Positions 2-30,905 of a stretch of DNA of 32,000 bases are shown here, piece after piece. The position numbers were made by a program, and so were the translations under genes. The notes under the pieces were generated by a model, which did no database searches, was not told the origin of the DNA, and worked only from the letters and a program-made list of their open reading frames with translations. This stretch comes from an uncultured Opitutales bacterium (GTDB lineage: Bacteria > Verrucomicrobiota > Verrucomicrobiia > Opitutales > Intestinicryptomonadaceae). The stretch spans positions 360,001-392,000 of the forward strand of contig CAKTSY010000001.1 of the NCBI GenBank assembly GCA_934613415.1, read 5' to 3'. The number at the start of each line of letters is the position of its first letter. The first letter of the stretch is position 1.

Positions 2-1441
2 TCGGCAGACGACGTAATTTTTACGCTCGACTGCATTTTTGCCCCCAAGCTAGACAAAAACGGCAAGGCGGAAAAAGACCAAAAAACAGGCAAACCGCTT
101 CTTAGGTACCCTACCCGAAACGCGGGGCAATACACAATAGGCGGCGAATATGTTAAATATAAAAAGATAGACGACTACACCGTTGAATTTAAAACCAACA
201 CGGTTTACGCCCCCTTTATAAACGACATAAGCTATCTTGAAATTCTGCCAAAGCACAAGCTGTTTAAAGCCTTTGAAGACGGAACTCTTACCCTAAGCTG
301 GACAAGCCAAACTGCAATAGAAACCCCTTCCGAAATTGTGGGTTTGGGCGCATTTAAAATATATTCATACCGCCCAGGCGAAAGGCTTGTTTTAGAGCCC
401 AACCCGCACTACTGGAAAGCCGACAAAAAACTGCAACGCCTGCCCTACATAGACTTTTTGATATTTAAATTTGTTTCCGACGCAAACACGGCAACGGTGC
501 TGTTTGCAACAGGGCAAAGCGACGCTGCAAACGTTTCGGCAAACGACTATGTTTGGGTAAAAAACTTTGCAAGCACCTACAACTTCGACATCTACGAGCG
601 CGGCCCCGATTCTGGCATTCAGTTTTTGTGCTTCAACCAAAATATGCGGGCTGCCTTAAAAGAAAATTCCGCGCTAAAAAGCTACAAAGTAAACTGGTTT
701 TGCAACAAGCTGTTCCGTCAGGCTGTTTTGTATGCCATAAACAGGCGCGACCTTATAAACGGCACATTTTTTGGCAGGGCAAAGGAGATAGACTCGGTTA
801 TAGGGCAGACAAACAAAAAGTGGCACAACCCAAATCTTAAAAAATACAACTACAACCCCAAATTGGCAAAGGAACTTTTGCTTAAAGCGGGCTTTATATA
901 TAAAGACAACGAGCTTTTCGACAAACAGGGGCACCGCGTAGAGTTTTCGCTTATGATTTCGGACGGCTCTTTAAGCGCAATGAACACCGCCACAACCATA
1001 ATGGAAAACCTAAAGGCTGTTGGCATTGCCGTAAAACTTACCGCAATGGACTTTTCGGCAATGATTTCGAAAATAAACGATTCTTGCGATTTTGAAGCCG
1101 TAATGCTGGGCTTTACGGGCGGCGGAGACCCTTCGGGGGGAAAGGCCATATACCGTTCCGACGGTTTTTTGCATATATGGAACCCGCGCCAAGACAAACC
1201 TCAAACCGAGTGGGAAAGGCAGATAGACGCTTTAATGGACCAGCAGGAAAGCGAAATGGATTTGCAAAAACGCCGCAACATAGTCTTTAAGATGCAGGAA
1301 ATTTTTACCGAGCAGCTGCCCCTTATATATCTAACAACCCCGTTCTCGTATTCGGGCGTAAAAAAGAAGTGGAAAAACATATCCGTTCCCCAAAGCGAAA
1401 GTATTTTGTGGAATTTAGACGAGCTTTACCAAGATGATTAG
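2..1441 (+). CDS. ABC transporter substrate-binding protein, family 5 (peptide/nickel, OppA/DppA-like); 5' end lies outside the window
   Basis: The frame of the listed 338..1441 ORF stays open back to nt 2 (SADDVIFTLDCIFAPKLDKNGK...). The family-5 SBP pattern LEPNPHYWK is present. The gene overlaps the downstream permease by 8 nt. Confidence 0.85.
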   Translation, partial: SADDVIFTLDCIFAPKLDKNGKAEKDQKTGKPLLRYPTRNAGQYTIGGEYVKYKKIDDYTVEFKTNTVYAPFINDISYLEILPKHKLFKAFEDGTLTLSWTSQTAIETPSEIVGLGAFKIYSYRPGERLVLEPNPHYWKADKKLQRLPYIDFLIFKFVSDANTATVLFATGQSDAANVSANDYVWVKNFASTYNFDIYERGPDSGIQFLCFNQNMRAALKENSALKSYKVNWFCNKLFRQAVLYAINRRDLINGTFFGRAKEIDSVIGQTNKKWHNPNLKKYNYNPKLAKELLLKAGFIYKDNELFDKQGHRVEFSLMISDGSLSAMNTATTIMENLKAVGIAVKLTAMDFSAMISKINDSCDFEAVMLGFTGGGDPSGGKAIYRSDGFLHIWNPRQDKPQTEWERQIDALMDQQESEMDLQKRRNIVFKMQEIFTEQLPLIYLTTPFSYSGVKKKWKNISVPQSESILWNLDELYQDD

Positions 1442-3698
1442 GTACGTTTTAAGACGCTTTCTTTCGATTATACCAATGCTTTTGGCGACAAGTGCACTGG
1501 TGTTTTTGCTTATGTATATTGCCCCTGGCGACTTCTTAAGCGAAGCGAGAAACTCGAAGGAAATTAGCCCCGAAATTGTAAGGCAAGAGGAAATTCGCCT
1601 GGGGCTAGACAAGCCGTGGTATGTGCAATATGCAAGGTGGCTAAACGGGGTGTCTCCCGTAAAAAGCAACCTATTTTTGCCCGAAAGCGAAAAAGAACAA
1701 CATTCTATTGTATATTTCGGCAAGCCCGATTTCGGATATTCGTGGAGCTACAAAATTCCCGTTAGCAATCTGTTGTGGCAAAGAATACCCGCAACATTGG
1801 CGTTGGCATTCGCCTCGCTTTTTGCAACATATTTAATTGCCATACCGCTAGGGGCATTGGCTGCAATGTATAAAAACTCGCTATTCGACAAAATTACGGG
1901 AGTATTGTCGTATATATGTCTTAGCGTGCCCTACTTTTTTCTTGCGCTGCTTGCGGTGCTTGCCGCCGCTCTTACTGGCTGGCTGCCAACGGGCGGGCAA
2001 ACTTCAATACAGTTCGACTTTCTTTCCTTCCCCCAAAAGGTGGGCGACTTTCTTACCCACCTTATTCTGCCGACGGCGGTTTTAAGCATTGGCTCTATAG
2101 CCTCGCTTACAAGAATTATGCGCGGCAACTTTTTGGATTATTCGAATCAGGAGTTTGTTATAACCGCGCGCGCAAAAGGCGTAGGCGAAAACGCAATAGC
2201 ACTAAAACATATTTTACGAAACGCGCTAAACCCGCTTATAACGTCTTTCGGGTTTGCCCTTAGCGGCATATTGTCGGGCGCGCTTTTAATAGAAAACGTA
2301 ATGAACTACCCGGGGCTTGGGCAGCTTGTATATACCGCCATTTTAAAACAAGACCAATTTGTTGTTATGGCGGGCGTAGTTATCGGCTGCGTTATGCTTG
2401 TTGTAGGCCAGTTGGTTGCCGACATTCTGCTGGCGGTGTGCGACCCGAGAATTAGGCTAGAAAACGAAAAGATACCTTATAAAACGCTTACAATAATTCT
2501 TTCGGCAACGGCGTTGTTTTGCGCCGCGCTAACCTACTTTGCCGAAAGCAAGCCGCTGTTGTTTGCATATTTTGCAAACGCGTTAAAATACGTCGGCCTT
2601 GCGTTGATTTGCGTGCTTGTTGCCGCGGTTATTGTAGGGCTAGCTTGGGGTGCGCTATATTTTATAAAGCACTTTTTAAAACCCATCTTAAAAAGCAAAA
2701 AAGGTGCGTTTTCGTTTGCGGTATTGTTTGTTATGTACTTTTCGGCGGCGTTTTCGCAGTTCTTGTCGCCCTATTCGCCCGAAAGGCAAAACCTTAACAA
2801 TGCGTTCGAGCCCCCCACTAAAATTGTATACGAAAACGGCGCGCTTTGGGCGGTTCAATATAAAAGGGTAGATGTTTCGGCGTCTACCTACATTCCCGTT
2901 TCGAAGGCAAAAATAAAATTCTTTGTTGAAGGTTCGGAATATAATTTTTGGGGAATGTTTAAATGCAAAACCCACCTTTTCGGCACCGAAAACCCCAACG
3001 ACAGGGTGTTTTTGCTCGGCACCGACTCTACCGGCAGATGCGTGTTTACAAGGCTTTTATACGGGGCTGTAATTTCGCTTAGCATAGGCTTTATAGGCAT
3101 TGCAATAACGCTTGTTTTGGGCTTTATTGTAGGCGGCCTTTCGGGCTATTTTGGAGGGGCAATAGACTTTGTTTGCATGCGCTTTGTTGAATTTTTAATG
3201 GCAGTTCCCAGCTTGTACCTGCTTTTGGCAATGCGCTCGGCGCTTGCCCCGCACTTTAGCAGCGGCCAAATGTATGCAATGATTATAATAATTCTTTCGG
3301 CGCTGGGCTGGGCGGGAGCCGCCCGCGTAATCAGGGGCATGGCGCTTTCGCTGCGCAAAAGGCAGTATGTGCAGGCCGCAGTTTGCATGGGGCAAAGCCC
3401 GCTAAGCGTAATTATTAAGCACTTCTTGCCCAATATGCTAAGCTACCTGATTGTAAGCGCAATGCTTTCGATACCCGCCTACATATTGGGCGAAGCCGCC
3501 CTTTCCTTTTTGGGGCTTGGCATACAAGAGCCCGCGGCTTCGTGGGGGTTAATGCTTTCGCAGGCGCAAAACGACACAAAAGTGCTTATGCTGGGCTTTT
3601 GGTGGCTGCTGTTGCCGGGCGTTGCAATATTTGCCGCCGTGCTCGCCTTTAGCGCGCTCGGCGACATTATGCGCGACATAGCCGACCCCAAAAAATAA
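1434..3698 (+). CDS. Fused ABC transporter permease (DppB/OppB-like N-half plus DppC/OppC-like C-half)
   Basis: The N-terminus MIRYVLRRFLSIIPMLLATSALVFLLMYIAPGDF is a typical DppB/OppB start. The C-half has the OppC-type LGTDSTGRCVFTRLLYG loop, the permease core (FVEFLMAVPSLYLLLAM) and the ending DIADPKK. Two extra hydrophobic helices lie between the halves. Confidence 0.85.
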   Translation: MIRYVLRRFLSIIPMLLATSALVFLLMYIAPGDFLSEARNSKEISPEIVRQEEIRLGLDKPWYVQYARWLNGVSPVKSNLFLPESEKEQHSIVYFGKPDFGYSWSYKIPVSNLLWQRIPATLALAFASLFATYLIAIPLGALAAMYKNSLFDKITGVLSYICLSVPYFFLALLAVLAAALTGWLPTGGQTSIQFDFLSFPQKVGDFLTHLILPTAVLSIGSIASLTRIMRGNFLDYSNQEFVITARAKGVGENAIALKHILRNALNPLITSFGFALSGILSGALLIENVMNYPGLGQLVYTAILKQDQFVVMAGVVIGCVMLVVGQLVADILLAVCDPRIRLENEKIPYKTLTIILSATALFCAALTYFAESKPLLFAYFANALKYVGLALICVLVAAVIVGLAWGALYFIKHFLKPILKSKKGAFSFAVLFVMYFSAAFSQFLSPYSPERQNLNNAFEPPTKIVYENGALWAVQYKRVDVSASTYIPVSKAKIKFFVEGSEYNFWGMFKCKTHLFGTENPNDRVFLLGTDSTGRCVFTRLLYGAVISLSIGFIGIAITLVLGFIVGGLSGYFGGAIDFVCMRFVEFLMAVPSLYLLLAMRSALAPHFSSGQMYAMIIIILSALGWAGAARVIRGMALSLRKRQYVQAAVCMGQSPLSVIIKHFLPNMLSYLIVSAMLSIPAYILGEAALSFLGLGIQEPAASWGLMLSQAQNDTKVLMLGFWWLLLPGVAIFAAVLAFSALGDIMRDIADPKK

Positions 3699-4308: not shown

Positions 4309-5067
4309 ATGCCCTTGTTCGACAAAAATTTGCTTTTTGGCAATTTTAAAGAATCGGGGATATATCTCGAAATTTTCGAAGAAGTAGCCTCTACAAACGA
4401 CAAGGCATTTGAGCTTTTAAGTAAAGGCAATTTGTGCGCGGCCATTGCCGAAACGCAAACTAGCGGGCGCGGCAGGCTAGGCCGCAAATGGGAGGGCTCT
4501 TTGGGCGAATCGCTTTTCTTTTCTGGCGGTTTTGTTGTGGGCGAAAACACAAAGCTATTAAGCGTGCCCTGCTGCGTTGCAATTTTGCTTTGCAGACAGC
4601 TAAAAAGTGCATTCGGCGCAAATCTGCAAATTAAATGGCCAAACGACATTTATTTTAACAACAAAAAACTTTGCGGCATTTTATGCGAAGCAAAGGCAGA
4701 AAACGGCAAAATATCCAAAGCGGTTGTTGGCATAGGCGTAAACATTATGCCGCCAAAACACCCCGAAAGTTTTAGACGCCCCCCCGTTTCGCTAAGCGAA
4801 ATTTGCGAAAATGCCGACATAAACGAATGCGCAATCTGCTGCAAAAACGCATTTGTACAAGCCGTTAATTGCCGGAACGCAAAAAATGTCTTGTCGCACT
4901 TTGCCGAATACGATTGGCTATACGGCAAAAAGGTAAAAATTTTGCTTTCGCAAGAGGAAATAGAGGGCATTGCCTGCGGCATAAACGAAAATGCCGAACT
5001 TTTAATTAAACAGGCAAACGGCGAAATAAAAAATGTATCTTCGGGCGAGGCAAGCATTGCCGTATGA
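4309..5067 (+). CDS. birA: Biotin--[acetyl-CoA-carboxylase] ligase, short form without an N-terminal HTH
   Basis: GRGRLGRKWEGSLGESLFFS and KWPNDIYFNNKKLCGILCE are the BirA catalytic-domain signatures. The ATG is 1 nt after the Sel1 gene stop. Confidence 0.85.
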   Translation: MPLFDKNLLFGNFKESGIYLEIFEEVASTNDKAFELLSKGNLCAAIAETQTSGRGRLGRKWEGSLGESLFFSGGFVVGENTKLLSVPCCVAILLCRQLKSAFGANLQIKWPNDIYFNNKKLCGILCEAKAENGKISKAVVGIGVNIMPPKHPESFRRPPVSLSEICENADINECAICCKNAFVQAVNCRNAKNVLSHFAEYDWLYGKKVKILLSQEEIEGIACGINENAELLIKQANGEIKNVSSGEASIAV

Positions 5068-6980: not shown

Positions 6981-7250
6981 ATGCCGCGCAGAATTTCGGA
7001 AAGCAAACAAGACAAAAAACGCAAGGCCGACTACGAAGCGTTGACTAGCCCCTTTATGCAAATAGAGGGAATGAAAGTGGCGGGAGCTCGTGCCTTGCTA
7101 GACCTAAATATTAGGCACACCTACGAGCTAAGGGGGCGCGCACCCGAAGTGCTGCTAGAAGAACTTTCTAAAAAACGCAAAAGCGTTGCCGACGACGACT
7201 ACCTAAAATACTTCCGCTTAGCCGTAGACTACGCCGAAAGGGAAGCATAG
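6981..7250 (+). CDS. Small helix-hairpin-helix protein (Cdd1 / pathogenicity-locus-like)
   Basis: 89 aa. A basic N-terminus is followed by IEGMKVAGARALLDLNIRHTYELRGRAPEVLLEEL...YLKYFRLAVDYAE, which matches the HhH / DL.G..PE.L / AV.YA pattern of that family as I remember it. The ATG directly abuts the upstream stop. Confidence 0.5.
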   Translation: MPRRISESKQDKKRKADYEALTSPFMQIEGMKVAGARALLDLNIRHTYELRGRAPEVLLEELSKKRKSVADDDYLKYFRLAVDYAEREA

Positions 7251-10230: not shown

Positions 10231-11577
10231 CTACCAGATAAATCTTTCTTTTGCGCCGCTTGGCAATATCTTGATTTGCCCAGTGCCAAAGTCGCGCGAT
10301 GCGTTAAAAGCCAAAGCCAAAGCCCAAAATAAGTCGCAGTGCCCGTCGCTATTGTGCTGTGCGCTAAAACTTGTGCCGCCGTAGGCGAAAGACCTTTTTA
10401 AATTCCTGAAATTTGTGCGAACAGCTTCAATATCGGGAATGGAAAACTCGCAATTTTCCAATGCCGATTTTAAAGGATACGCCAAAATCTCTTTGCTTTT
10501 TGCCGAAAAATTAAACTCTTTTATGCGCGAATTTCCATAACGCTCTTTTGCCCTCTCGGCAAACTGCCGGCCAATACCCGTATTGTCTATGCACGCCTTT
10601 ATAACGTTTTCGTGCCTTAAATACGAAAACAAAACCGATTCCTGTTCCGAAAAGGGAGCGTCTTTCATAAGCTGTATGTCGCGCACAAAGCAGTGCCCGT
10701 TTATCTTTTCGATAAGGCAAAATGCGCTAAAATCCCTCGTTCTGGCAACGTCTACCCCCAAATACATAGGGTTGTTTATTGTAGACGGTTCGCACCGCCA
10801 ATTTTCGGAGGGCGGGTAGAAATTTTTCTGCAAAACTGCAAACGGAACAAAAACTTCGTTGTCGTTTGCGGGAATGCACATATATTCCTGCATAAAACTT
10901 TGCTCGTCTACGCACGAAGATTTTATGTAGTTAAAATATTCGGCTTCGTCCATATCGTATACGGGATTGTCTTTGCCGAGCGCATTTTTAAGTTTTTGCA
11001 AAAAGCCCTGCTCTAATGCGTCTTGCAGACTTACAGTGTGCAGCGAAATATTTTTTGGGTTGTTGTTGTATTTTATTTCGCAAACAAGTTTGTTGAAAAA
11101 GCTGTCTGCGCCCCTGTGGGTCGAAATTATTTCAAGCTGCCCGCCCCAGGTTATTCCCGGATACGCTATTGCGTAGAGTTTTTCGGGGTCTTCGTGCAGG
11201 GCAAACTCGTCCAGAATACGGTTGCCGCGCTTGCCGGCCTGCGCGTCGGGGTTCGAGCTTAGCGAATGGATTTTCGTTGAGTTTACAAATTCTATTTCGC
11301 ACGACGATGCGCTTTTAGATACTCCAACCCCGACGCTTTCGGTAAAGGCTATGTTCAAAATTTCGGCAAACTTTTTACAGTCTTGCACAAACAAAGACGC
11401 CTGCACTTCGTCGCGCGAGCTTACCCAAGAATCCAGCCTTTGCGAGCTTATGGCGTGGCGGCGCACAAGGCTGTATGCCGATGTCCAGCTCATTCCTATT
11501 TGGCGGCTCTTTTCCATAAGCTTAATTCGCGAATTGTCCAAAAGCCACTTTTTCTGATACGGCAAAAAAAAGCTCAT
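10231..11577 (-). CDS. Phage terminase large subunit (Mu gp28-like)
   Basis: LPYQKKWLLDNSRIKLMEKSRQIGMS (Q-motif plus deviant Walker A), RILDEFA (Walker B), IISTH (coupling motif). RNase-H-like nuclease acidic motifs are GVDVAR, CIDNTGIG and HCDLFWALALA. ATGA overlap with the upstream gene. Confidence 0.85.
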   Translation of the reverse strand: MSFFLPYQKKWLLDNSRIKLMEKSRQIGMSWTSAYSLVRRHAISSQRLDSWVSSRDEVQASLFVQDCKKFAEILNIAFTESVGVGVSKSASSCEIEFVNSTKIHSLSSNPDAQAGKRGNRILDEFALHEDPEKLYAIAYPGITWGGQLEIISTHRGADSFFNKLVCEIKYNNNPKNISLHTVSLQDALEQGFLQKLKNALGKDNPVYDMDEAEYFNYIKSSCVDEQSFMQEYMCIPANDNEVFVPFAVLQKNFYPPSENWRCEPSTINNPMYLGVDVARTRDFSAFCLIEKINGHCFVRDIQLMKDAPFSEQESVLFSYLRHENVIKACIDNTGIGRQFAERAKERYGNSRIKEFNFSAKSKEILAYPLKSALENCEFSIPDIEAVRTNFRNLKRSFAYGGTSFSAQHNSDGHCDLFWALALAFNASRDFGTGQIKILPSGAKERFIW

Positions 11578-11972
11578 AGCAGTTTAAGTTTGTCTTCTAT
11601 TTGGGCAAGGGTTTCGCCGCCTATTTCGCCCGAAGGCGTTTTGGCAGCCTCGTCTTTTGTCGTTGCTGAAAGTTTTTGCACAACTCCCGCTACGGCGTTA
11701 AGCGCGCTTGGCGTAATTTCTGCAATATCGCCTTCGCAAAAATAGTCGAACAAAGCCTCTAAAATTAAGTCTACTAAAACTTTGCGCTTATCGCATAGCG
11801 AGCCCAAAACAATTTCCGAAGCTGTTTTTGCATTTTCGCGAGCCGTGCGTATTTTTTCTAGATACTCGCAAAACGGAGTGCCCAACACCCGTTTTTTTGC
11901 GCGCTTTTTGGGCTTTTCGGCAAGAGCCTCTTTGTCTGTTGCTTTTTTGCTGTCTTTCGCTTTTGGCGGCAT
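11574..11972 (-). CDS. Hypothetical protein in the terminase small-subunit position
   Basis: Lys-rich N-terminus (PPKAKDSKKATDKEALAEKPKKRAKKR) followed by a helical core. It lies directly upstream of TerL and is translationally coupled to it. I prefer the ATG at 11972 (preceded by AGAAGGGG plus 8 nt) over the track's TTG at 11993. The TerS assignment is positional only. Confidence 0.45.
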   Translation of the reverse strand: MPPKAKDSKKATDKEALAEKPKKRAKKRVLGTPFCEYLEKIRTARENAKTASEIVLGSLCDKRKVLVDLILEALFDYFCEGDIAEITPSALNAVAGVVQKLSATTKDEAAKTPSGEIGGETLAQIEDKLKLL

Positions 11973-11973
11973 A

Positions 11974-12237
11974 CTAAAAACCCCTTCTTTCAAGATAGTC
12001 GTAGGCTGCCGCCATTAGCGCGCAACGCTTGTATGATGGCGAAATTTCGTCTTCGCTAATTTTTATGTAGCCTTTCTTTTCAAGGTAGTCTAACTCACGC
12101 AAAAGCTCGGGCTCGCTTATTTGAAAAGACGCGATTTTTAGCCCGCACAAAAGATTTTTTAGCGGCATTTGCACGGGGCTTGCCTCTCTTAGCTGAAGCA
12201 AAATTGCAGTGCGCGCAAGAATTTTACTGTAGCTCAT
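11974..12237 (-). CDS. Small winged-helix-like protein, function unknown
   Basis: 87 aa. The ELLRELDYLEKKGYIKI segment resembles a wHTH recognition helix plus wing. ATGA overlap with the upstream gene. Its stop is 1 nt before the next ATG. Confidence 0.4.
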   Translation of the reverse strand: MSYSKILARTAILLQLREASPVQMPLKNLLCGLKIASFQISEPELLRELDYLEKKGYIKISEDEISPSYKRCALMAAAYDYLERRGF

Positions 12238-12635
12238 TTTGCCGCCTTTGCCGCGATTTTTTCAACCCTAACGCCAAGCTCGCCAATGCGCTGGTTTGCA
12301 AGCGCGCTTTGAGCGATTAAGGCACTTATGTTTTGCGCGTTTTTGCTTATAAGCTCGCGCGTTTCGCCAAGGCTTTGGGCATATTGCCGCTGCATTAGGC
12401 GAATGTCCTCCCTAATTTCGGCGCGCAAAAGCCTAAGCTCGCCGCCCGATTCGGTTATTATGCGCATTAGCTCGTTGCGCATCTTTTCCATATTTGTGTA
12501 TGTTACATATGTTATTTTAGGGTCTGGCTTTTCGGATTGCATATCCCTAATTTTTAAAGCCAAATAATATGCGCCAAGCAAAGCTGTGGCCGCCGTAAGA
12601 GCCAACCCCAAAAGTTCTGAAGATTGCGTTTCCAT
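12234..12635 (-). CDS. Single-pass membrane protein with a coiled-coil C-terminal domain (phage late-region type)
   Basis: One N-terminal TM helix (LLGLALTAATALLGAYYLALKI), then heptad-like helical sequence (LRLLRAEIREDIRLMQRQYAQSLGETRELI...). It is the first gene of the four-gene cassette. Confidence 0.5.
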   Translation of the reverse strand: METQSSELLGLALTAATALLGAYYLALKIRDMQSEKPDPKITYVTYTNMEKMRNELMRIITESGGELRLLRAEIREDIRLMQRQYAQSLGETRELISKNAQNISALIAQSALANQRIGELGVRVEKIAAKAAK

Positions 12636-12641
12636 CTGCCA

Positions 12642-12670
12642 AATTTAAAACCGTGCGACAAATGGGTCAA
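12642..12670 (-). promoter_or_regulatory. Candidate promoter of the packaging cassette
   Basis: On the minus strand: TTGACC (12670-12665), a 17-nt spacer, TAAATT (12647-12642), then 6 nt to the ATG at 12635. This is leaderless-type geometry. Confidence 0.3.
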
Positions 12671-12728
12671 ACATAGGTTGGCTTTGTTTGCAATATTTGA
12701 AAGCGCACAAATTCGGCGCAAAGGCGCG

Positions 12729-14969
12729 CTATATTGTAGAATAAGGATCTACGTCTAAAACGTCTTCTATGTCTTTGTCGAATGTAAAAGAATTTCTTAC
12801 CCGCATAATCTTTTCGACGGTGCTTCTTACATTGGTGCAAAAATACCACAAGTGCCAGCGGTAATATTCCTGAATTTTTTCTATCGGAGCGGGAGCCGGC
12901 CCCCTCATTAAAACCGAAGAGCCAAGTTCAAGCTCGGCTTTTTTGGCAAAGTGCTCGCAATAAAACGCAAGCTTGTCGGGGTTGCGCGACCTGAATATGT
13001 GCCTGATAAGACGCTTTGCAGGCGGATACGAAAACCGCATTCTGTTTTCGAGTTCCTCCTTTAAAAAGTCCTCTAAATTGTCTTTGCGCGCATATTGTAT
13101 TGGCGGAGCGTCGGGGTTCATTGTCTGCACAATAACTTCGCCGCCGCCGGTGCCCCTGCCCGCCCTGCCCGAAACCTGAACAATAAGTTGATAGGTTCGC
13201 TCGTTGGCGCGAAAATCCTCCATATTCAAACTTATGTCGGCGTTCAATATGCCCACAAGCGTAACTTTGGGGAAATCCAACCCCTTCGAAATCATCTGCG
13301 TCCCCACAAGCATATCTATGTTGCCCTTTCTAAATTCGCCGAAAATGCGGCGGTATTCGTCGCGCTTTTTCATTGTGTCGGCGTCTATACGCGCCACTTT
13401 TGCCTGCGGGAATGTCTGCGAAATATATTCTTCTACCTTTTGCGTGCCAAAGCTTTTCCATTTGGCTTTTGGCGAACCGCAATTAGGGCACTTTTGCGGA
13501 GCCTTTTCTTTGTGTCCGCACATATGGCACATAACGTAGTCTTCTTTGCGATGCCATGTAAGGCTAACCGAGCAATTAGGGCATGTTGCCACATACCCGC
13601 AATCGGGACACTGGAAAAGTTTTGAATAGCCCCTTCGGTTTAAAAACAAAATCACCTGTTCTTTGCAGTCTAGTCTGGCAAGCACTTTGTCGCGCAATAT
13701 GTTCGAAAATATGGCGTTTGGCTTTTCGCGCTTCATATCCACAAGCATAATTTTAGGCATTGCCCTATCGTCTACGCGCGAAGTCATTTTGCTGATTGAA
13801 TACTTCGCATTTTGAACATTGTATAAAGTTTCAAGCGAAGGCGTTGCCGACCCCAACAACGCCAAAGCTCCGTTTAGCGACGCTCTGTATACCGCCAAAT
13901 CCCTCGCGTTGTAGCGGGGCATATTCTCCTGCTTATAGGCAGTGTCGTGCTCTTCGTCTACAATAATAAGCTTTAGGTTTTGCATTGGGGCAAACACGCA
14001 CGATCGCGCGCCCACTGCAACCTTTGCAGAACCGTTTATCATCGACTTCCAAGCCTGCAACCTTTGCCCGTCGCTTAGGTTGCTGTGCCAAACAACAAGC
14101 TCGCTTGCGCTTAAATTAAGTTTGCTTCTAAGCCTGCCAACCGTTTGAGGGGTAAGCGAAATTTCGGGCACCATAAAAATGCAAGAGCCGCCGTTTTCCA
14201 AAACGCTGCGCATTGCCCTTATATATACTTCGGTTTTGCCCGAACCCGTAACGCCATATAGCAAATGCGTTTTAAATTTGTTTTTGGCAAGCTGCGCGCA
14301 AATGTCGTTTAGGGCGTTTTGCTGCTGCTCGTTAAGGGGCAAGTCTTTTGCCGCAACCACCTCGTTTTGCGAAATATCGTCGTCGAAGGCGAATTTTAAA
14401 AGCTCGGTATCGCGCTGGCAAACCATGTTTTTTTCTACAAGCGCGTCTACCGACGAAGGCGAAACATTAAGGTTTTTGCACAACGCCGCCCTTAAAACGG
14501 GGAACTTGTTTTTGCTTAGATATTCGCAAATTTTATACTGGTTTTTTGCGCGGGTTTTTAAGGCGTCTATGTCGCTTTGCTTTACGTTTTCGCTTAGGCG
14601 AATTTCAAGATTGCGCTGCACTTCTTTACCCGATTTTACAACAGCAGGCAGCATTGCCTCTACCGCCTGCTGCACAGTGCAGGCATAATACGAAGCAATC
14701 CATCTGGCCAAATCAAAAAGCTCTTTTGTCAACACGGGGCATTCGCCTACAACAGAATACACATTCTTAAGCTTAAAGCCCGAATAATCCGAAGAATTGT
14801 AGTCTTTTATATCGCACACAACGCCATCTGCCATAGTTCCCCTAAGAGGCACTTTAACCAGCGAGCCAACCAAAAGCTTCTCAACAAGCGAATCGGGCAC
14901 AATGTATGTAAGCTCTTTGCCGAATCCGCTAAAGAGTATTACCGACGCTACTTTTGAAAAGCCGTTCAT
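12729..14969 (-). CDS. priA: Primosomal replication-restart helicase PriA
   Basis: GVTGSGKT (Walker A), IIVDEEHD (DExH), and a Cys-rich zinc module (CPDCGYVATCPNCSVSLTWH...CHMCGH...CPNCGS). The start is set at MNGFSKVASVI (14969). The 72-codon upstream extension in the track overlaps hisA. Confidence 0.9.
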   Translation of the reverse strand: MNGFSKVASVILFSGFGKELTYIVPDSLVEKLLVGSLVKVPLRGTMADGVVCDIKDYNSSDYSGFKLKNVYSVVGECPVLTKELFDLARWIASYYACTVQQAVEAMLPAVVKSGKEVQRNLEIRLSENVKQSDIDALKTRAKNQYKICEYLSKNKFPVLRAALCKNLNVSPSSVDALVEKNMVCQRDTELLKFAFDDDISQNEVVAAKDLPLNEQQQNALNDICAQLAKNKFKTHLLYGVTGSGKTEVYIRAMRSVLENGGSCIFMVPEISLTPQTVGRLRSKLNLSASELVVWHSNLSDGQRLQAWKSMINGSAKVAVGARSCVFAPMQNLKLIIVDEEHDTAYKQENMPRYNARDLAVYRASLNGALALLGSATPSLETLYNVQNAKYSISKMTSRVDDRAMPKIMLVDMKREKPNAIFSNILRDKVLARLDCKEQVILFLNRRGYSKLFQCPDCGYVATCPNCSVSLTWHRKEDYVMCHMCGHKEKAPQKCPNCGSPKAKWKSFGTQKVEEYISQTFPQAKVARIDADTMKKRDEYRRIFGEFRKGNIDMLVGTQMISKGLDFPKVTLVGILNADISLNMEDFRANERTYQLIVQVSGRAGRGTGGGEVIVQTMNPDAPPIQYARKDNLEDFLKEELENRMRFSYPPAKRLIRHIFRSRNPDKLAFYCEHFAKKAELELGSSVLMRGPAPAPIEKIQEYYRWHLWYFCTNVRSTVEKIMRVRNSFTFDKDIEDVLDVDPYSTI

Positions 14970-15041
14970 AAAATCAAAATTGACTAATATAAAAATGCGT
15001 AGATTATAGTTTACAGATTTTAAAAATTTGCAAACAAGATT
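14970..15041. promoter_or_regulatory. Divergent priA/hisA promoter region
   Basis: A 72-bp AT-rich spacer. Plus strand: TTGACT (14980-14985), 16 nt, GATTAT (15002-15007). Minus strand: a perfect TATAAT at 15008-15003. The two -10 elements overlap. Confidence 0.35.
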
Positions 15042-15782
15042 ATGATAGTATACCCCGCCATAGATATAAAAAACGGCAAATGCGTTAGGCTTAAACAGGG
15101 TCTGGCAAACCAACAAACGGTGTATTTTGAAAACCCAATAGACGCCGCAAAAATGTTTGTAGACGCCAATGCCAAATGGATACACATTGTAAACCTCGAC
15201 GGCGCGTTCGACGCAAAAACTTCGGTGCTTGGCATAGTCGAAAAAATTTGCGCAATGGGCGTAAAAGTGCAGCTTGGCGGCGGTATGCGCGACGTTTTGT
15301 CGGTTAAAGCCGCTTTGGAATGCGGTGTAAGCCGCACGGTTATAGGCACAAAGGCGTGCACCAACCCAGAATTTGTTTCCGAATTGGTTTCTTTATACGC
15401 CGAAAAAATTGCAGTTGGCATAGACGCAAAAGGCGGCAAGGTTGCCACAAACGGCTGGGTAAACGTAAGCGACAAAAACGCGCTTGATTTTGCATTGGAT
15501 ATGGCAAAAAGAGGCGTAAAAACCGTTATTTATACCGACATAGACACAGACGGAATGCTGACGGGCCCGAACATTGCGGCCCAAAGCAAAATGCTCGAAA
15601 AAACGCTGCCATTTAACACGTCGGTTATAGCTTCGGGGGGCATTGCATCGGGCAAAGACATTTTGGCGTTAAACGAGCTTGCAAAGAAATACCCCAACCT
15701 AAACGGGGCTATAACGGGCAAGGCAGTATACGAAGGCAAAATTACCCAAAGCGAACTAAAGCGTTTTTGCACAGAGCTTTAA
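15042..15782 (+). CDS. hisA: ProFAR isomerase (1-(5-phosphoribosyl)-5-[(5-phosphoribosylamino)methylideneamino]imidazole-4-carboxamide isomerase)
   Basis: MIVYPAIDIKNGKCVRLKQG start, VIYTDIDTDGMLTGPN and ASGGIAS motifs. Typical 245-aa length. Confidence 0.9.
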   Translation: MIVYPAIDIKNGKCVRLKQGLANQQTVYFENPIDAAKMFVDANAKWIHIVNLDGAFDAKTSVLGIVEKICAMGVKVQLGGGMRDVLSVKAALECGVSRTVIGTKACTNPEFVSELVSLYAEKIAVGIDAKGGKVATNGWVNVSDKNALDFALDMAKRGVKTVIYTDIDTDGMLTGPNIAAQSKMLEKTLPFNTSVIASGGIASGKDILALNELAKKYPNLNGAITGKAVYEGKITQSELKRFCTEL

Positions 15783-25521: not shown

Positions 25522-27543
25522 CTACATACCCGAGCCCATCGCACCGCCGAACTGCGTTATATCTATGGCGGAATACGGGTTGTTGTATCTTGTAAGCAAG
25601 TCGGTGTGCAAAATATTTATAATGTTGTAGTCTTTTATGCCTTCCGAAACGTATTGCGCCATGGCTTTTCTTAGATTTATTTGGTAGCGCAAGGCGTCTC
25701 TATAAACGCTGTAATAGCGGTCTACATCTACGGGGCTTAGCATATTGCGCTTAAGCTCCATCAATACGTCTAGCATATAGCTGCGGTAGCATTTTGCATA
25801 CATTTCTTTCGACATCTTGCGCTTTAATAAGTCTATTGAATGCTTTTCGGCAATCGCGCCAAGCGCGCCGCTTCGCATTGCATAGCCGTATAGGTTGCGC
25901 TTAAAGAAAACAAGAAAGTCGTTGTTTAAATCGGTATAGCGGCGTATTTCGGTTTTCTGGCGTTGAAGTTCCTGAATACTGAATTTGCTCCACTCTTTAA
26001 GGTTGTTAAGCCTTAAAAAGTCTATTGTACCGAACGGCTTTTCGGATTTTAACGAAGCGTCGAACTGCCTTACCAACGTATCGTAGTCGGGCAAATCCAT
26101 ATCTTCGTGCCCAATAATAGAGCCAGTTTTGCCCGAATAGTCTATAACGCCCGAGTTGTAGCGGTTTACCGCCATAGATATAACCGTCATATTTTCGGGG
26201 TCTATTATAACCGACTGCGAAATGCCGGGAACAGTTTGCGACACTGTTGCCATAAATTTTGTGCCGTCGCGGCTTATGGGCTTTACGGAAACGTCGCGTT
26301 CAAAGCGCGGAATTTTGCCGAACACAAGGTTAAAATATTTGTCGTCTTCCGAGAATATGCGCACATAGCCAACTTTAATTGCACCCGAATCGTGCGAAAC
26401 TAGGCACAAATCTTTTTCGGCATCGGGCGAAAACTTTTCCATAATCTTAAGCGGAATAAACGCCTTGTCGAGATTGTCTGGGATAAGCGCAATTAACGGA
26501 TAGTTTTTTGAAATCAACGCCCTAGAACACACAATTTCGCCCAAGCTATTCGATATTTTTACGGGAAGGTTGCCCTCTAAAAATTCCTGCGTGCATAAAA
26601 TTACGGGGTGTTCGCCTATTTTTGTAAGAACAGCCGTATACACGGTTTCAAGTTTGCCGCGCTTGGTAAATATTGATGTTTGAAAAATATTTTCTATCTT
26701 TTTCGAATAGCTTGCGTCTACAAGCGTTTCGTTTTCGTGCAGGCGCAAATTGCCGCGTTTTATTTTTTCGGCCTTAATTTGCGAGCGTATTTGCCTATCG
26801 TTTGCAATAATTTCCTGAATACCCGTCTCAAATTCGGCAAGCTGTTTTTCGTATTGATTGGGGTATTTTGTTTTTACAAAATCGCGCAAAGAATCGAAGT
26901 CGTTTTTAAGCGACGCCCTTGGAGCATTTATAGATTCAAGCCTACGGGCGGCGTTAATCTGCGTTTCCATATACGATTTTGCGTTAGAGGCAATGCCCTT
27001 GCTGTTTTCTATCGCGCGTTTTTTCAGCTGCGCAAGCTCGTCTTTTGTAAGCACTTTTTTGCTGTCTAAATCCCTCGACAAAAACGACGCCCATTCCGAA
27101 AAGTTGCTTTCCATCTTAAAAAAGTCGTCTTTGTAAAATTTCTCCAAAACCGAAATGGTTTCGTTATAGACTTCTTTGGGATACGACAATTTGTATTCGT
27201 TTAAATTTGCGCACGAAAGCGTTTGGGCAAAAAGCCAGTTTTTGCGTTCCACAAAGTCGTCGGCAAATTTAGATTCTGCCTGTTCCAAAATTTTTGCATA
27301 GGTTGCGGCGGGCAGGTTTATTTGCGCAGTTTGAATTTCGTTGTAGGCGCAAACCTGTTTTTCTATATACTGCTTTTTATGCGCGGACGAATTTGCGAAA
27401 TATTTTTGCGCGTTGTCGATTATGGTTTTTGCAACGCCTTCGGGAATGTTGGCAAACAAATTTTCTTCGGGCGACTTTTGTTTTGTGCAGGAAACCGCAA
27501 AAAACAAAGTTGCAACAAAAAGCGTATATGCAAAAATTTTCAT
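25522..27543 (-). CDS. Large putative lipoprotein, function unknown
   Basis: Signal peptide ending in the lipobox-like AVSC (MKIFAYTLFVATLFFAVSC). 673 aa with no motif I recognise. Helical N- and C-terminal thirds flank a beta-rich middle. Its ATG is 1 nt after the pdxA stop. Confidence 0.6.
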   Translation of the reverse strand: MKIFAYTLFVATLFFAVSCTKQKSPEENLFANIPEGVAKTIIDNAQKYFANSSAHKKQYIEKQVCAYNEIQTAQINLPAATYAKILEQAESKFADDFVERKNWLFAQTLSCANLNEYKLSYPKEVYNETISVLEKFYKDDFFKMESNFSEWASFLSRDLDSKKVLTKDELAQLKKRAIENSKGIASNAKSYMETQINAARRLESINAPRASLKNDFDSLRDFVKTKYPNQYEKQLAEFETGIQEIIANDRQIRSQIKAEKIKRGNLRLHENETLVDASYSKKIENIFQTSIFTKRGKLETVYTAVLTKIGEHPVILCTQEFLEGNLPVKISNSLGEIVCSRALISKNYPLIALIPDNLDKAFIPLKIMEKFSPDAEKDLCLVSHDSGAIKVGYVRIFSEDDKYFNLVFGKIPRFERDVSVKPISRDGTKFMATVSQTVPGISQSVIIDPENMTVISMAVNRYNSGVIDYSGKTGSIIGHEDMDLPDYDTLVRQFDASLKSEKPFGTIDFLRLNNLKEWSKFSIQELQRQKTEIRRYTDLNNDFLVFFKRNLYGYAMRSGALGAIAEKHSIDLLKRKMSKEMYAKCYRSYMLDVLMELKRNMLSPVDVDRYYSVYRDALRYQINLRKAMAQYVSEGIKDYNIINILHTDLLTRYNNPYSAIDITQFGGAMGSGM

Positions 27544-29252: not shown

Positions 29253-30905
29253 CTATTTGTTTTGTGTTTGGGTTGCGGCCTGCACAAGCAAAGTACGCTT
29301 GTAGGGGCGAACGAACGAAATTTTTAAAACCGCCGTAAACATAATGCCAAACAAGGTTGAAGTGTAGCCCGCCATAAGGCCTGCGTCTACCCAGTTTAGG
29401 CTAAGCATTATAAGCGAAAGAACCGTGCCCGCCAAACCGACATATAGGCCTAGGTCGAACAGGTTTTCCTCGTTGTTTAAAAGCTCTATTTTTAGCGATG
29501 CTGGAGCGTTTAATTTTTTTACCGCCGCAATTTTAATCAGGCTCATTACAAATATGGTAAACTGCAAAAGCAGAAATACCGAAACCGACACTATAGTTGG
29601 CATATCAAGTTTGAAGTCCATAACCGATTTTACTTTGTTAGAATTTATTATGTTTGAAAATGCAAATTTTATTTCGGGAGATTTTTGCGCCCCAAAGCTT
29701 ATGTCGAAAACCGCGGGCTCTACCGCCAAAATTATAAGCATTGCGACAATGCTTGCCGTAAACAAATTGCGCCAAACAAACAATGCGCCGTTTGGCGTTT
29801 TGCCAGAAAAAAGCCCGCGAACAGACGAAACAATTACATAAGAGCCAAATAGCGCAAGCGCAAATTTTAGCAGCTTTGAAATTGCGGGGAACTCCGCACA
29901 AAACGCCCCCATTTGAACCGAATTTTCAATCTGCCAAATATCGAGAGCTTGCAGGCATTTGGGCATTTTGTGTATGGGCTTGTTGTTTTTCAGCAAAAGC
30001 TCCAAAGCGCCCGCGCCCAAATCGCCGGCATAAATAAAATCGCCAAAGGCATTTTTTTTGCCGTCCGACAAATATTTGCAAACGCCCTTTATGTCTTTGC
30101 ACATAAGCACCGCCGAATACGCCAAGTCGAAAGATTTTGCATCGGGAACATTTTTAAATGCAACGGATAAATCGGCATAGTCTGCCATAGAATCGACTTT
30201 TGAATTAAGCTCGCACAATTCAATCCAGTTAAGCTTTTTTGCAAACGACAACAACCCAACGCAATACGATTCGTACTTAAAGCGCGAAGTGTCGTCGTTT
30301 TTTATGTTGCTTAGCTTTAGGGCAAAGTCTTTTAAAAATTCGGCGTTAAACGAGCCGCTTTGAACGCTTAAAGCCGTTATTGCAACCGCTGCCGAATAGG
30401 GAACGCCAGCCGAAGTGGAAGCCGCAGGCAGCAAAACCGTGTTTAAATTCCGCAATTTTAAAATTTCGCAAACAAGCGGCATTTCGCTTTGCGAAAGGAA
30501 ATCGAAAAACGCGTTTCTTATTTGGGGCGTAGCCAACAGCGCATATACGCTTTGCGGAGTTTCGTCTTTAAGCGAAAATGTTGAATATAACGCCGAAAAG
30601 AAAGTTTCTTCGCCGCCCGCTACGCGCCAAACGCCCTTTTCGCTTAGCATATTTTCGCTTGCAGCTTTCAACGCCTTTGCGCTGGGCGAATTGTCGTATC
30701 TTAATAAGTCTATTGCCAAACTTGGCTTTGCCGTACCCAAATAAAATTCGGCAAGAGTTTTGCGGTTTACCGAATTGTTTGCGCTAAGCAGCTGCGACTG
30801 TGAAATGCCCGAAAAATACGAAGGCACGTTTACCGCCAAAAATATTGCGGCAAAGCCCAACACGGCTTTTAGCGCAGCTATAACGGCTTTGGCAAACGGC
30901 TTCAT
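29253..30905 (-). CDS. Polytopic membrane protein with a MotA/TolQ/ExbB-like C-terminal channel segment and a large N-terminal extracytoplasmic domain
   Basis: One N-terminal TM helix, then about 330 aa of soluble region, then several TM helices. The last two helices read GLYVGLAGTVLSLIML...GLMAGYTSTLFGIMFTAVL, resembling the LGLLGTV.G / TT..G signature of MotA/ExbB proteins. The resemblance is judged by eye only. Confidence 0.45.
   Translation of the reverse strand: MKPFAKAVIAALKAVLGFAAIFLAVNVPSYFSGISQSQLLSANNSVNRKTLAEFYLGTAKPSLAIDLLRYDNSPSAKALKAASENMLSEKGVWRVAGGEETFFSALYSTFSLKDETPQSVYALLATPQIRNAFFDFLSQSEMPLVCEILKLRNLNTVLLPAASTSAGVPYSAAVAITALSVQSGSFNAEFLKDFALKLSNIKNDDTSRFKYESYCVGLLSFAKKLNWIELCELNSKVDSMADYADLSVAFKNVPDAKSFDLAYSAVLMCKDIKGVCKYLSDGKKNAFGDFIYAGDLGAGALELLLKNNKPIHKMPKCLQALDIWQIENSVQMGAFCAEFPAISKLLKFALALFGSYVIVSSVRGLFSGKTPNGALFVWRNLFTASIVAMLIILAVEPAVFDISFGAQKSPEIKFAFSNIINSNKVKSVMDFKLDMPTIVSVSVFLLLQFTIFVMSLIKIAAVKKLNAPASLKIELLNNEENLFDLGLYVGLAGTVLSLIMLSLNWVDAGLMAGYTSTLFGIMFTAVLKISFVRPYKRTLLVQAATQTQNK

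Follow-up and report, generated by a model that had tools for sequence, protein, structure and literature searches.

A putative DNA-packaging operon of a domesticated, Mu-derived, gene-transfer-agent-like element in Opitutales

Introduction

What is a phage DNA-packaging cassette doing between priA and a gene for a secreted glycosidase in the chromosome of an uncultured Opitutales bacterium? The cassette lies in a 32-kb stretch (assembly GCA_934613415.1, contig CAKTSY010000001.1, positions 360,001 to 392,000; hereafter the window), where it occupies 12635–10231 and consists of four minus-strand genes. These encode a membrane-anchored coiled-coil protein (p133), two further small proteins (p87 and p132) and a terminase large subunit (TerL). 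The priA gene is upstream, across a gap of 93 bp, and a signal-peptide glycoside hydrolase family 28 (GH28) gene is downstream, across 54 bp, in agreement with a first-pass annotation of this DNA. The rest of the 32 kb contains, as that annotation also stated, no phage-like genes; the other large open reading frames (ORFs) are housekeeping genes or have no family match.

Three explanations had been offered for this orphan cassette: a very recent prophage stump, a packaging module that serves structural genes elsewhere in the genome in the manner of a gene transfer agent (GTA) or satellite, and a co-opted defence system. Here we weigh them using data that come from metagenome assemblies and metagenome-assembled genomes (MAGs), except for the genome of Rubellicoccus peritrichatus; fetched loci carry numbers with the prefix L. 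We find that the cassette is very probably the packaging half of a two-locus, Mu-derived element. Judged from its sequence, it is also, with less assurance, probably the DNA-packaging operon of a chromosomally fixed, domesticated, GTA-like element that derives from Mu/B3-type phages and is conserved in Opitutales and Puniceicoccales.

Results

The 448-amino-acid (aa) protein is, by sequence, a terminase large subunit of the Mu gp28/B3 type with both domains intact. It matched Pfam Terminase_6N (PF03237; 30.8 bits, cut-off 22) and Terminase_6C (PF17289; 57.5 bits, cut-off 22.6; 153 of 155 profile positions covered) and, among the PHROG terminase families, PHROG_2 (E = 1.9e-33), and these profile searches confirm its earlier identification as a terminase. 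Among cultured phages, the closest relative comes from the transposable Pseudomonas phage B3 (its gp28-like terminase, 47% identity), and terminases of Mu-like phages of Sinorhizobium, Microcystis and Leptolyngbya come next. When 120 relatives were aligned with the B3 and Mu proteins, every motif that had been picked out by eye at first pass proved invariant: a P-loop of the lambda-type deviant form (K23-S-R-x-x-G28-x-S30), the Walker B residues D123-E124, the coupling motif S152-T153-H154 and the nuclease residues D276, D331 and H413-x-D415.

The two genes directly before TerL are probably of Mu type as well. The p87 protein is probably Mu gp26-like and probably of winged-helix type. Its family profile aligned with B3 ORF29, which is annotated as similar to Mu gp26 (hhalign probability 83%, E = 9e-6, 59 columns), and over the full length, weakly, with Mu gp26 itself (E = 0.0096). 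It further matched phrog_436 (E = 4.5e-5) and gave only weak helix-turn-helix (HTH) matches, with which the winged-helix call of the first-pass annotation is consistent; its gene is directly upstream of the gp27-like gene, the same position as in B3 and Mu. Putative membership of p132 in the gp27 family comes from transitive homology, through the Pfam matches of its relatives, and from gene position. Five of the 13 family members matched Phage_Mu_Gp27 (PF11985; best E = 3.3e-6, most below the Pfam cut-off of 28 bits), and the family shares a conserved core and an invariant C-terminal motif, LS.E.L..IE.QLKLL. Comparison of the family with the B3 and Mu gp27 proteins by hhalign was not significant.

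The first gene, p133, belongs to a family with 41 representatives among 1.84 billion proteins. An AlphaFold2 model (predicted local distance difference test score, pLDDT, 91.8) predicts a transmembrane (TM) helix at residues 4–34, a kink at a conserved PDPK(I/L)TY and a single helix of 94 residues at 39–132. Mu gp25, or releasin, has an N-terminal TM domain, almost no periplasmic part and a helical cytoplasmic domain, and is encoded just upstream of gp26 (PMC9239132). The modelled p133 fits this architecture and, as the first gene, directly before the gp26-like gene, also this position. Assignment of p133 to Mu gp25/DUF2730 by sequence was rejected: none of 26 family members matched DUF2730 (PF10805), a Pfam scan of 10 members likewise found none, and hhalign to Mu gp25 returned E = 0.01–0.02 over just 29–32 columns. 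There was no match between p133 and the B3 ORF28 lipoprotein, and no signal-anchor-release (SAR) endolysin partner for p133 was found. The gp25-gp26-gp27-gp28 order of Mu proposed at first pass thus stands for p87, p132 and TerL, which match in family and order as in B3 and Mu, and for p133 it stands in position and architecture only.

TerL relatives with 45–66% identity are abundant in Opitutales, Puniceicoccales, R. peritrichatus and marine TARA scaffolds. In 12 fetched genomes TerL is directly followed by structural genes, with housekeeping flanks and no integrase, transposase or repressor. These unsplit clusters measure ~10 kb. They begin with a TM protein, p133, the gp26-like and gp27-like proteins and TerL, and continue with a Mu-type portal (PF06074), a gpI-like protease (PF10123), a decoration or scaffold protein of the Phage_cement_2/B3-ORF37-like kind (hhalign to B3 ORF37, E = 1.5e-4) and a major capsid protein (MCP) of ~305 aa. 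After the capsid gene come three small proteins of ~140 aa each, a 45–62-aa coiled-coil peptide, a 560–610-aa tail-hub protein and a ~200–210-aa protein. One contiguous ~10-kb cluster of this kind is the ancestral form.

In one clade, comprising the window's species and L002, L003, L021, L027, L028 and L029, a break between TerL and portal has divided the cluster, and the halves now occupy different chromosomal sites. The clade is monophyletic in the TerL tree and in the portal tree. In L027 the portal operon is inverted and sits one unrelated gene away from the cassette, and L003, L021, L028 and L029 resemble the window in having an isolated cassette. The portal operon of the L029 species (L038) is on the same 337,074-bp contig, ~74 kb from the cassette and in opposite orientation, and other assemblies of that species have TerL and portal clusters together on contigs of 382,804, 323,239 and 160,336 bp. 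For the window's own species, MAG GCA_034180465.1, which has 92.6% DNA identity to the window, carries a portal (MDY6069186.1) on JAXFOH010000089.1 and a TerL (MDY6069213.1) on JAXFOH010000092.1. The window is 100% identical to contigs L022, L025 and L026, and sequencing run ERR7738179 yielded both L026 and the portal contig L049. Portal cluster P0174, considered as the window species' own, was rejected: it comes from a further split species, whose samples and flanks are not those of the window's species.

The packaging module imagined at first pass, one serving structural genes elsewhere, is borne out by these loci: an operon running from portal to tail hub, with portal, capsid and hub genes, exists at a second locus in a sister species and in the window's species. 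The cassette is an orphan within the 32-kb window and not within the genome. Because nearly all data are metagenomic, a normal contiguous prophage wrongly split in assembly or binning could give the same picture. We regard this as most improbable: the priA–cassette–GH28 junctions are identical in 21 contigs from independent samples, the two-locus layout occurs on single long contigs in at least four independent sister-species assemblies, and both loci have housekeeping genes on either side.

The second locus of the window's species (L046) encodes a portal, a protease/scaffold protein, a decoration protein, a capsid protein, p149, p144, p134, p45, a hub protein (p569) and p214, and is flanked by an amino-acid permease gene on one side and a resistance-nodulation-division (RND) efflux operon on the other. 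PHROG matches identify the portal (E = 1.9e-26), protease (3.6e-9) and major head protein (7.9e-10). A model of p569 (pLDDT 78.5) shows a baseplate-hub/central-spike fold, which it shares with Mu gp44, the MuSo2 43-kDa tail protein, VgrG and the spikes of contractile injection systems (Foldseek E as low as 2e-12, probability 1.0). Two further assignments were rejected: p214 as an endolysin, where a BLAST match of E = 0.004 in a tiny database had no support in profile comparison, and p149, p144 and p134 as Mu/B3 head-completion or tube proteins, which gave no match in profile comparison. Searches of the Protein Data Bank (PDB) with the sequences of TerL, p214, p134 and p149 and with the three small-protein profiles returned nothing useful.

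The p45 peptide and its 45–62-aa homologues form a conserved coiled coil directly before the hub gene, the usual site of a tape-measure gene, and their sole matches are faint ones to tape-measure PHROGs (E = 0.07–0.08). The peptide may be what is left of a tape measure, in which case the tail would be extremely short.

Other arrangements were seen outside the window's species. In R. peritrichatus (L018; CP136920) a third architecture keeps TerL to capsid and one small protein contiguous and then runs into folate genes; this locus lacks the hub and the other tail-proximal genes and has two minus-strand, secreted-looking genes between the gp27-like gene and TerL. A marine (TARA) unsplit cluster carries 150-bp palindromic and 74-bp GAGCCC-rich repeats in several intergenic gaps, and L019 and L020 diverge upstream of 7415, exactly at one such repeat. 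In the P0174 species (L030–L037) a 140-aa minus-strand gene is called inside the structural operon in seven of eight assemblies, and the plus-strand p144 homologue is intact there; an inverted or disrupted small gene at this place was dismissed as a gene-caller artefact.

By sequence comparison, both halves are intact and under purifying selection. Between the window and L002 the ratio of nonsynonymous to synonymous substitution rates (dN/dS) is 0.076 for TerL, 0.151 for p132, 0.150 for p87 and 0.045 for p133, compared with 0.02–0.18 for 13 neighbouring host genes. Between L046 and L055, the corresponding locus of the 92.6%-identical MAG, it is 0.03–0.20 for all ten structural genes and 0.06–0.10 for host neighbours, which over all comparisons range from 0.02 to 0.27. 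In closer strains there are no nonsynonymous changes against 27 synonymous ones in the portal gene and 15 in the capsid gene. In dN/dS all four cassette genes and all ten structural genes thus resemble their housekeeping neighbours. No frameshift or truncation occurs in the cassette in 21 contigs of the species or in relatives down to ~45% TerL identity.

These values contradict the very recent prophage stump: TerL identities fall to ~45–50% across an order-level lineage, and cassette dN/dS, which the first-pass annotation had named as a check for purifying selection, is 0.05–0.15 and as low as in the neighbours. A decaying, functionless Mu-like remnant is very unlikely. It would account for the lack of adjacent transposase, repressor and tail genes, and a similar Opitutales region has been called a defective prophage in the literature (PMC6920513). 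Intact ORFs across so wide a range of relatives, dN/dS of 0.03–0.20 in all 14 genes, invariant TerL catalytic residues and the recurrence of the same reduced gene set across an order-level lineage speak against it, and we discarded recent stump and debris alike on conservation, intact ORFs and dN/dS.

The two loci co-evolve: the split clade is monophyletic in both trees; TerL, portal and capsid identities each group the window's species with the L027 and L029 species. In L027, L028 and L029 the cassette occupies the same chromosomal site next to an HU gene. At this site TerL divergence (58–65%) is similar to that of the host neighbours, HU (69–74%) and a hydrolase (59%).

Selection of this strength shows that the genes confer some benefit, and such a benefit could lie outside gene transfer: in interference with phage packaging, in a bacteriocin-like particle or in a capsid-free machine that cleaves or translocates DNA. 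The cassette does persist away from capsid genes, and in L029 a BREX system lies 5–10 kb from it. An exaptation of this sort is unlikely on the remaining evidence. PADLOC gave no significant match for any of the four proteins (best scores, HTH_IX at E = 0.0011 for p87 and REase_II at E = 0.015 for p133, with nothing for TerL or p132), which leaves the co-opted defence system of the first-pass annotation without support. The cassette's neighbours vary by species and are genes of ordinary metabolism, not defence islands. The genes for capsid, portal, protease and hub show the same degree of conservation and evolve together with TerL, an indication that selection acts on the whole particle. Downstream of the isolated L029 cassette, over 1.5–10 kb, lie BREX genes (BrxL, PglZ) and an SMC-like/AAA pair.

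A candidate promoter-proximal motif is common to both operons. In the window's species the 15-mer AAATATTGCAAACAA lies 49 bp upstream of the p133 start codon, and the near-identical AAATATTCCAAATAA lies 69 bp upstream of the portal start codon in L046; the L055 version, AAATATTCCAAACAA, has the same 69-bp distance to the portal gene, in intergenic sequence that otherwise differs. The 14-mer found in sister species, AAAGTTNCMAAAGT, has 12 sites in 921 kb of fetched DNA, where ~0.05 are expected. All 12 are 30–55 bp upstream of the cassette (L003, L027, L028) or the portal operon (L027, L030–L037), and in L027 the motif precedes both operons of one genome. No regulator was identified; the shared motif alone was found before both operons.

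Two other motif candidates were set aside. The first L046 copy of CAAAWWTTGCAAAC overlaps an intrinsic terminator hairpin, and this motif was dropped in favour of the AAATATTSCAAAYAA site. The 150-bp and 74-bp repeats of L019 are dispersed repeats resembling miniature inverted-repeat transposable elements (MITEs) or repetitive extragenic palindromic (REP) sequences, not a promoter motif. In L029 a motif copy, AAATATTCCAAATTT, immediately follows the TerL stop codon. Immediately upstream of the portal operon, L046 and L055 differ by genes for a pyruvoyl-dependent arginine decarboxylase and an amino-acid permease, which are present in one strain only; the promoter-proximal motif is kept.

The likely model of the element's ancestor is a genuine Mu-like phage contig from IMG/VR (L053; IMGVR_UViG_3300015615_001077, 38,167 bp). 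It encodes a homologous TerL, portal, protease, cement protein, capsid and gp27-like protein, and among phages its head genes come nearest to those of the Opitutales element (portal 42–46%, MCP 43–47% identity). It also carries Gam, a MuB-like ATPase, DUF3102 and extra head genes, and Gam, the MuB-like ATPase and DUF3102 are absent from the element; the tail half of L053 is outside the fetched locus. The chromosomal element derives, in reduced form, from a phage of this kind. It lacks transposase, MuB, Gam, repressor, integrase and gp30/F, and no replication, integration, transposition or lysogeny module was found: neighbourhoods of ±10 kb in more than 15 genomes contain housekeeping genes only. 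Where neighbourhoods were annotated with Pfam, the components of a functional transposable prophage (transposase A, MuB, Gam, repressor and a full tail set) were missing.

Several observations weigh against a self-sufficient, vertically inherited particle of GTA type. The element has no Mu gp30/F homologue, and its portal is short (395 aa, compared with 488–512 aa). No tail tube, tape measure, fibre, holin or endolysin was recognised in it, and p149, p144, p134 and p214 remain without annotation after PHROG, PDB-sequence and profile searches, so the particle may be incomplete or dependent on further loci. The window copy of p132 gave no direct Phage_Mu_Gp27 match, and homology of p133 to gp25, with which its model shares architecture and its gene position, is unproven. 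In a crude neighbour-joining tree the phage TerLs of B3, L052 and L053 are placed among the deeper lineages of the element; vertical descent of TerL at that depth is consequently unproven, and there may have been exchange with phages or repeated domestication. The link between the window's genome and its structural locus rests on a MAG bin and same-run co-occurrence, not on a closed genome. As to the motif, the window species' pair is a 13/15 match between two ~150-nt regions, which is not significant (estimated p ~0.2), and the generalised motif was partly defined from sequences that it scores.

Some of these points fit a different arrangement, in which an infecting Mu-like phage of the L053 type supplies tails, lysis and induction, and the element, satellite-like, either spreads host DNA or sabotages the packaging of its helper. 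Tail tube, tape measure, fibre and lysis genes are those that were not recognised; IMG/VR holds genuine Mu-like phages with TerL 62–65% and portal and MCP 42–47% identical to the element's; and the intermingling of phage and element TerLs would fit recombination with phages. We consider helper dependence unlikely, if less so than exaptation. No integrase, replication initiator, excisionase or att-like boundary lies near any of the loci, and loci 74 kb apart cannot be mobilised as one unit. The conserved chromosomal position of the cassette, its ameliorated GC content (0.459, compared with 0.448 in the remaining window and counted as equal) and the element's own hub protein also argue against it.

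The four ORFs of the window lie where the first-pass annotation placed them (Table 1), and the translational coupling that it described is present, with ATGA overlaps at 12237–12234 and 11577–11574 and TAG-t-ATG at 11976–11970. For the third gene the annotation implied a start at ATG 11972, which gene callers use in 21 identical contigs (132 aa), and this start was retained; the mechanical ORF list supplied with it began at TTG 11993 (139 aa). Sigma-70-like sites in the region are not more numerous than expected from shuffled sequence, which makes the promoter candidate in Table 1 a positional suggestion.

Searches by tblastn of the window with all related-cluster proteins and phage B3 proteins matched the cassette alone, and B3 transposase A/B and tape-measure protein found nothing. 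The window contains no tRNA that we could find, and an Rfam scan of the window, L019 and L046 returned no known RNA family. Its remaining genes include an Opp-type transporter, birA, coaX, a beta-CASP nuclease gene, hisA, a citrate transporter gene, GH92, speE, pfkB, pdxA and lpxA. Three details of this setting were recorded. The mechanical priA ORF (818 aa, GTG start) overlaps the opposite-strand hisA; gene callers start priA ~72 codons later (746 aa), and the overlap is gone. Two large ORFs, of 673 and 550 aa, between permease/pdxA and lpxA/IMPase match no Pfam family at E <= 0.001 and are unlike any protein of the phage-derived element. A single 754-aa ORF with two BPD_transp_1 permease domains and OppC_N is an apparent OppB–OppC permease fusion, conserved in L001, L002 and L022.

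Table 1. Positions of the cassette genes, candidate regulatory sites and other features in the window and in fetched loci
Feature	Locus	Position	Strand	Description
p133	Window	12234..12635	-	First cassette gene; membrane-anchored coiled-coil protein; gp25-like by position and architecture
p87	Window	11974..12237	-	Small protein, probably Mu gp26-like
p132	Window	11574..11972	-	Putative Mu gp27 family; small-terminase position; Lys-rich N-terminal extension
TerL	Window	10231..11577	-	448 aa; terminase large subunit of Mu gp28/B3 type; ATPase and RNase H-like nuclease
Sigma-70-like promoter candidate	Window	12642..12670	-	TTGACC-17-TAAATT; between motif and p133 start; from consensus scan
Candidate shared motif	Window	12684..12698	-	AAATATTGCAAACAA
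Candidate shared motif	L046	9918–9932		AAATATTCCAAATAA
Motif copy	L029	11373–11387		AAATATTCCAAATTT
p45	L046	15007–15144		Coiled-coil peptide before hub gene
Strain-specific genes	L046, compared with L055	7550–9802 (L046); 1755–2297 (L055)		Region of arginine decarboxylase and permease genes
Third architecture	L018	7466–15867		TerL to capsid and one small protein
Repeats	L019/L020	8422–8568; 9855–10004; 9029–9102; 11402–11474		Shorter copies at 4514–4596, 7174–7226, 13514–13708 and 20684–20929
Gene called in structural operon	L030	14063–14485	-	Example of the 140-aa call in the P0174 species
BREX and SMC-like/AAA genes	L029	12807–21371		Downstream of isolated cassette
priA (mechanical ORF)	Window	12729–15185	-	818 aa
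hisA	Window	15042–15782	+	Opposite strand to priA
673-aa ORF	Window	25522–27543	-	No Pfam family
550-aa ORF	Window	29253–30905	-	No Pfam family
754-aa ORF	Window	1434–3698		Apparent OppB–OppC fusion

Discussion

The domesticated, GTA-like element that we favour would work as follows. A host-encoded or unlinked regulator would act on the shared motif and induce both operons. The second locus would then provide procapsids with a very short, hub-tipped tail, which the gp27-like protein and TerL would fill by headful packaging, as in Mu-like phages. The packaged DNA would have to be host chromosome, because the element can neither replicate nor transpose and its two sets of genes lie far apart; this would be gene-transfer-agent behaviour. 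By analogy with Mu gp25, the predicted inner-membrane-tethered p133 would probably act in release or lysis, and p87 may bind DNA as an accessory protein in pac recognition or in transcription. As read from genes and their conservation, a GTA-type function falls a little short of probable.

The element resembles the late region of Mu and B3 in the order and families of its gp26-like, gp27-like and gp28-like TerL genes, portal, protease, pre-capsid protein, capsid and gp44-like hub. Like those of Mu, its late genes would be read from more than one promoter with a common element. Unlike Mu and B3, it has no transposase A/B, Gam, repressor, Ner/C regulators, gp30/F, sheath or tube, tape measure or fibres; it is not flanked by phage ends, is chromosomally fixed and is split between TerL and portal, and its portal and MCP are just 22–23% identical to their B3 counterparts.

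With known GTAs (RcGTA of Rhodobacter capsulatus and its alphaproteobacterial relatives, BaGTA, VSH-1, Dd1 and VTA) the element shares a compact ~10-kb set of head, tail and terminase genes that lacks replication, integration and lysogeny functions, conservation in the host lineage and, as seen within the split clade, purifying selection, ameliorated composition and location at more than one locus. The particles of a GTA contain essentially random pieces of host DNA, each too short to hold the GTA itself, and deliver them to recipients, and host regulators control GTA expression; the two halves of the element are at least 74 kb apart in a sister species. Its origin is independent, in a Mu-like phage, whereas RcGTA-type agents derive from an HK97-like siphovirus, and the host phylum differs. 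The RcGTA small and large terminase subunits (TerS and TerL) stay in the head-tail cluster, whereas here the terminase operon is apart from portal and capsid. It differs from the GTAs further in that its regulator, lysis genes and fibres are not identified and that it is known here from genes alone.

Capsid-forming phage-inducible chromosomal islands (cf-PICIs) are likewise small chromosomal islands with their own TerS/TerL, portal, protease, capsid and connectors and, apparently, no full tail. Such satellites are mobilised as a single unit and are equipped with an integrase, att sites and a module for regulation and replication; the element has none of these and is split between distant loci. 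Integrase or primase families, as found in PICIs and cf-PICIs, occurred in no neighbourhood that we examined.

A region described as a defective prophage in Ca. Marcellius (Opitutales), with a large terminase, two Mu-like proteins and short hypothetical flanking genes whose best matches are in Verrucomicrobia (PMC6920513), is very probably the same element. That study saw debris in one genome; here the element is conserved, under selection and, in one clade, split into two co-evolving operons. As prophage pipelines and earlier papers speak of defective prophages, the same conserved element has probably been miscounted as viral debris in many Verrucomicrobial genomes.

We found no paper in the literature that links a GTA to Opitutae or Verrucomicrobia. 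To our knowledge, a handful of independently evolved GTAs exist, none of them from Verrucomicrobia and none derived from a transposable, Mu-like phage. Our sequence comparisons lead us to suggest, more tentatively still than a GTA-type function as such, that Opitutae, including abundant human-gut species, may carry an unrecognised GTA of Mu origin, whose split operons would be co-regulated through the motif and whose particles would move host DNA. Cultured carriers exist (R. peritrichatus and Intestinicryptomonas porci CLA-KB-P66), so that the hypothesis is directly testable. A two-locus, GTA-like arrangement has not previously been described in Verrucomicrobia. If particles are made, they would represent a new origin of domesticated viral gene transfer, would place such transfer in human-gut, rumen and marine Opitutales, and would show that a terminase operon can be maintained even when it is separated from the capsid genes that it serves.

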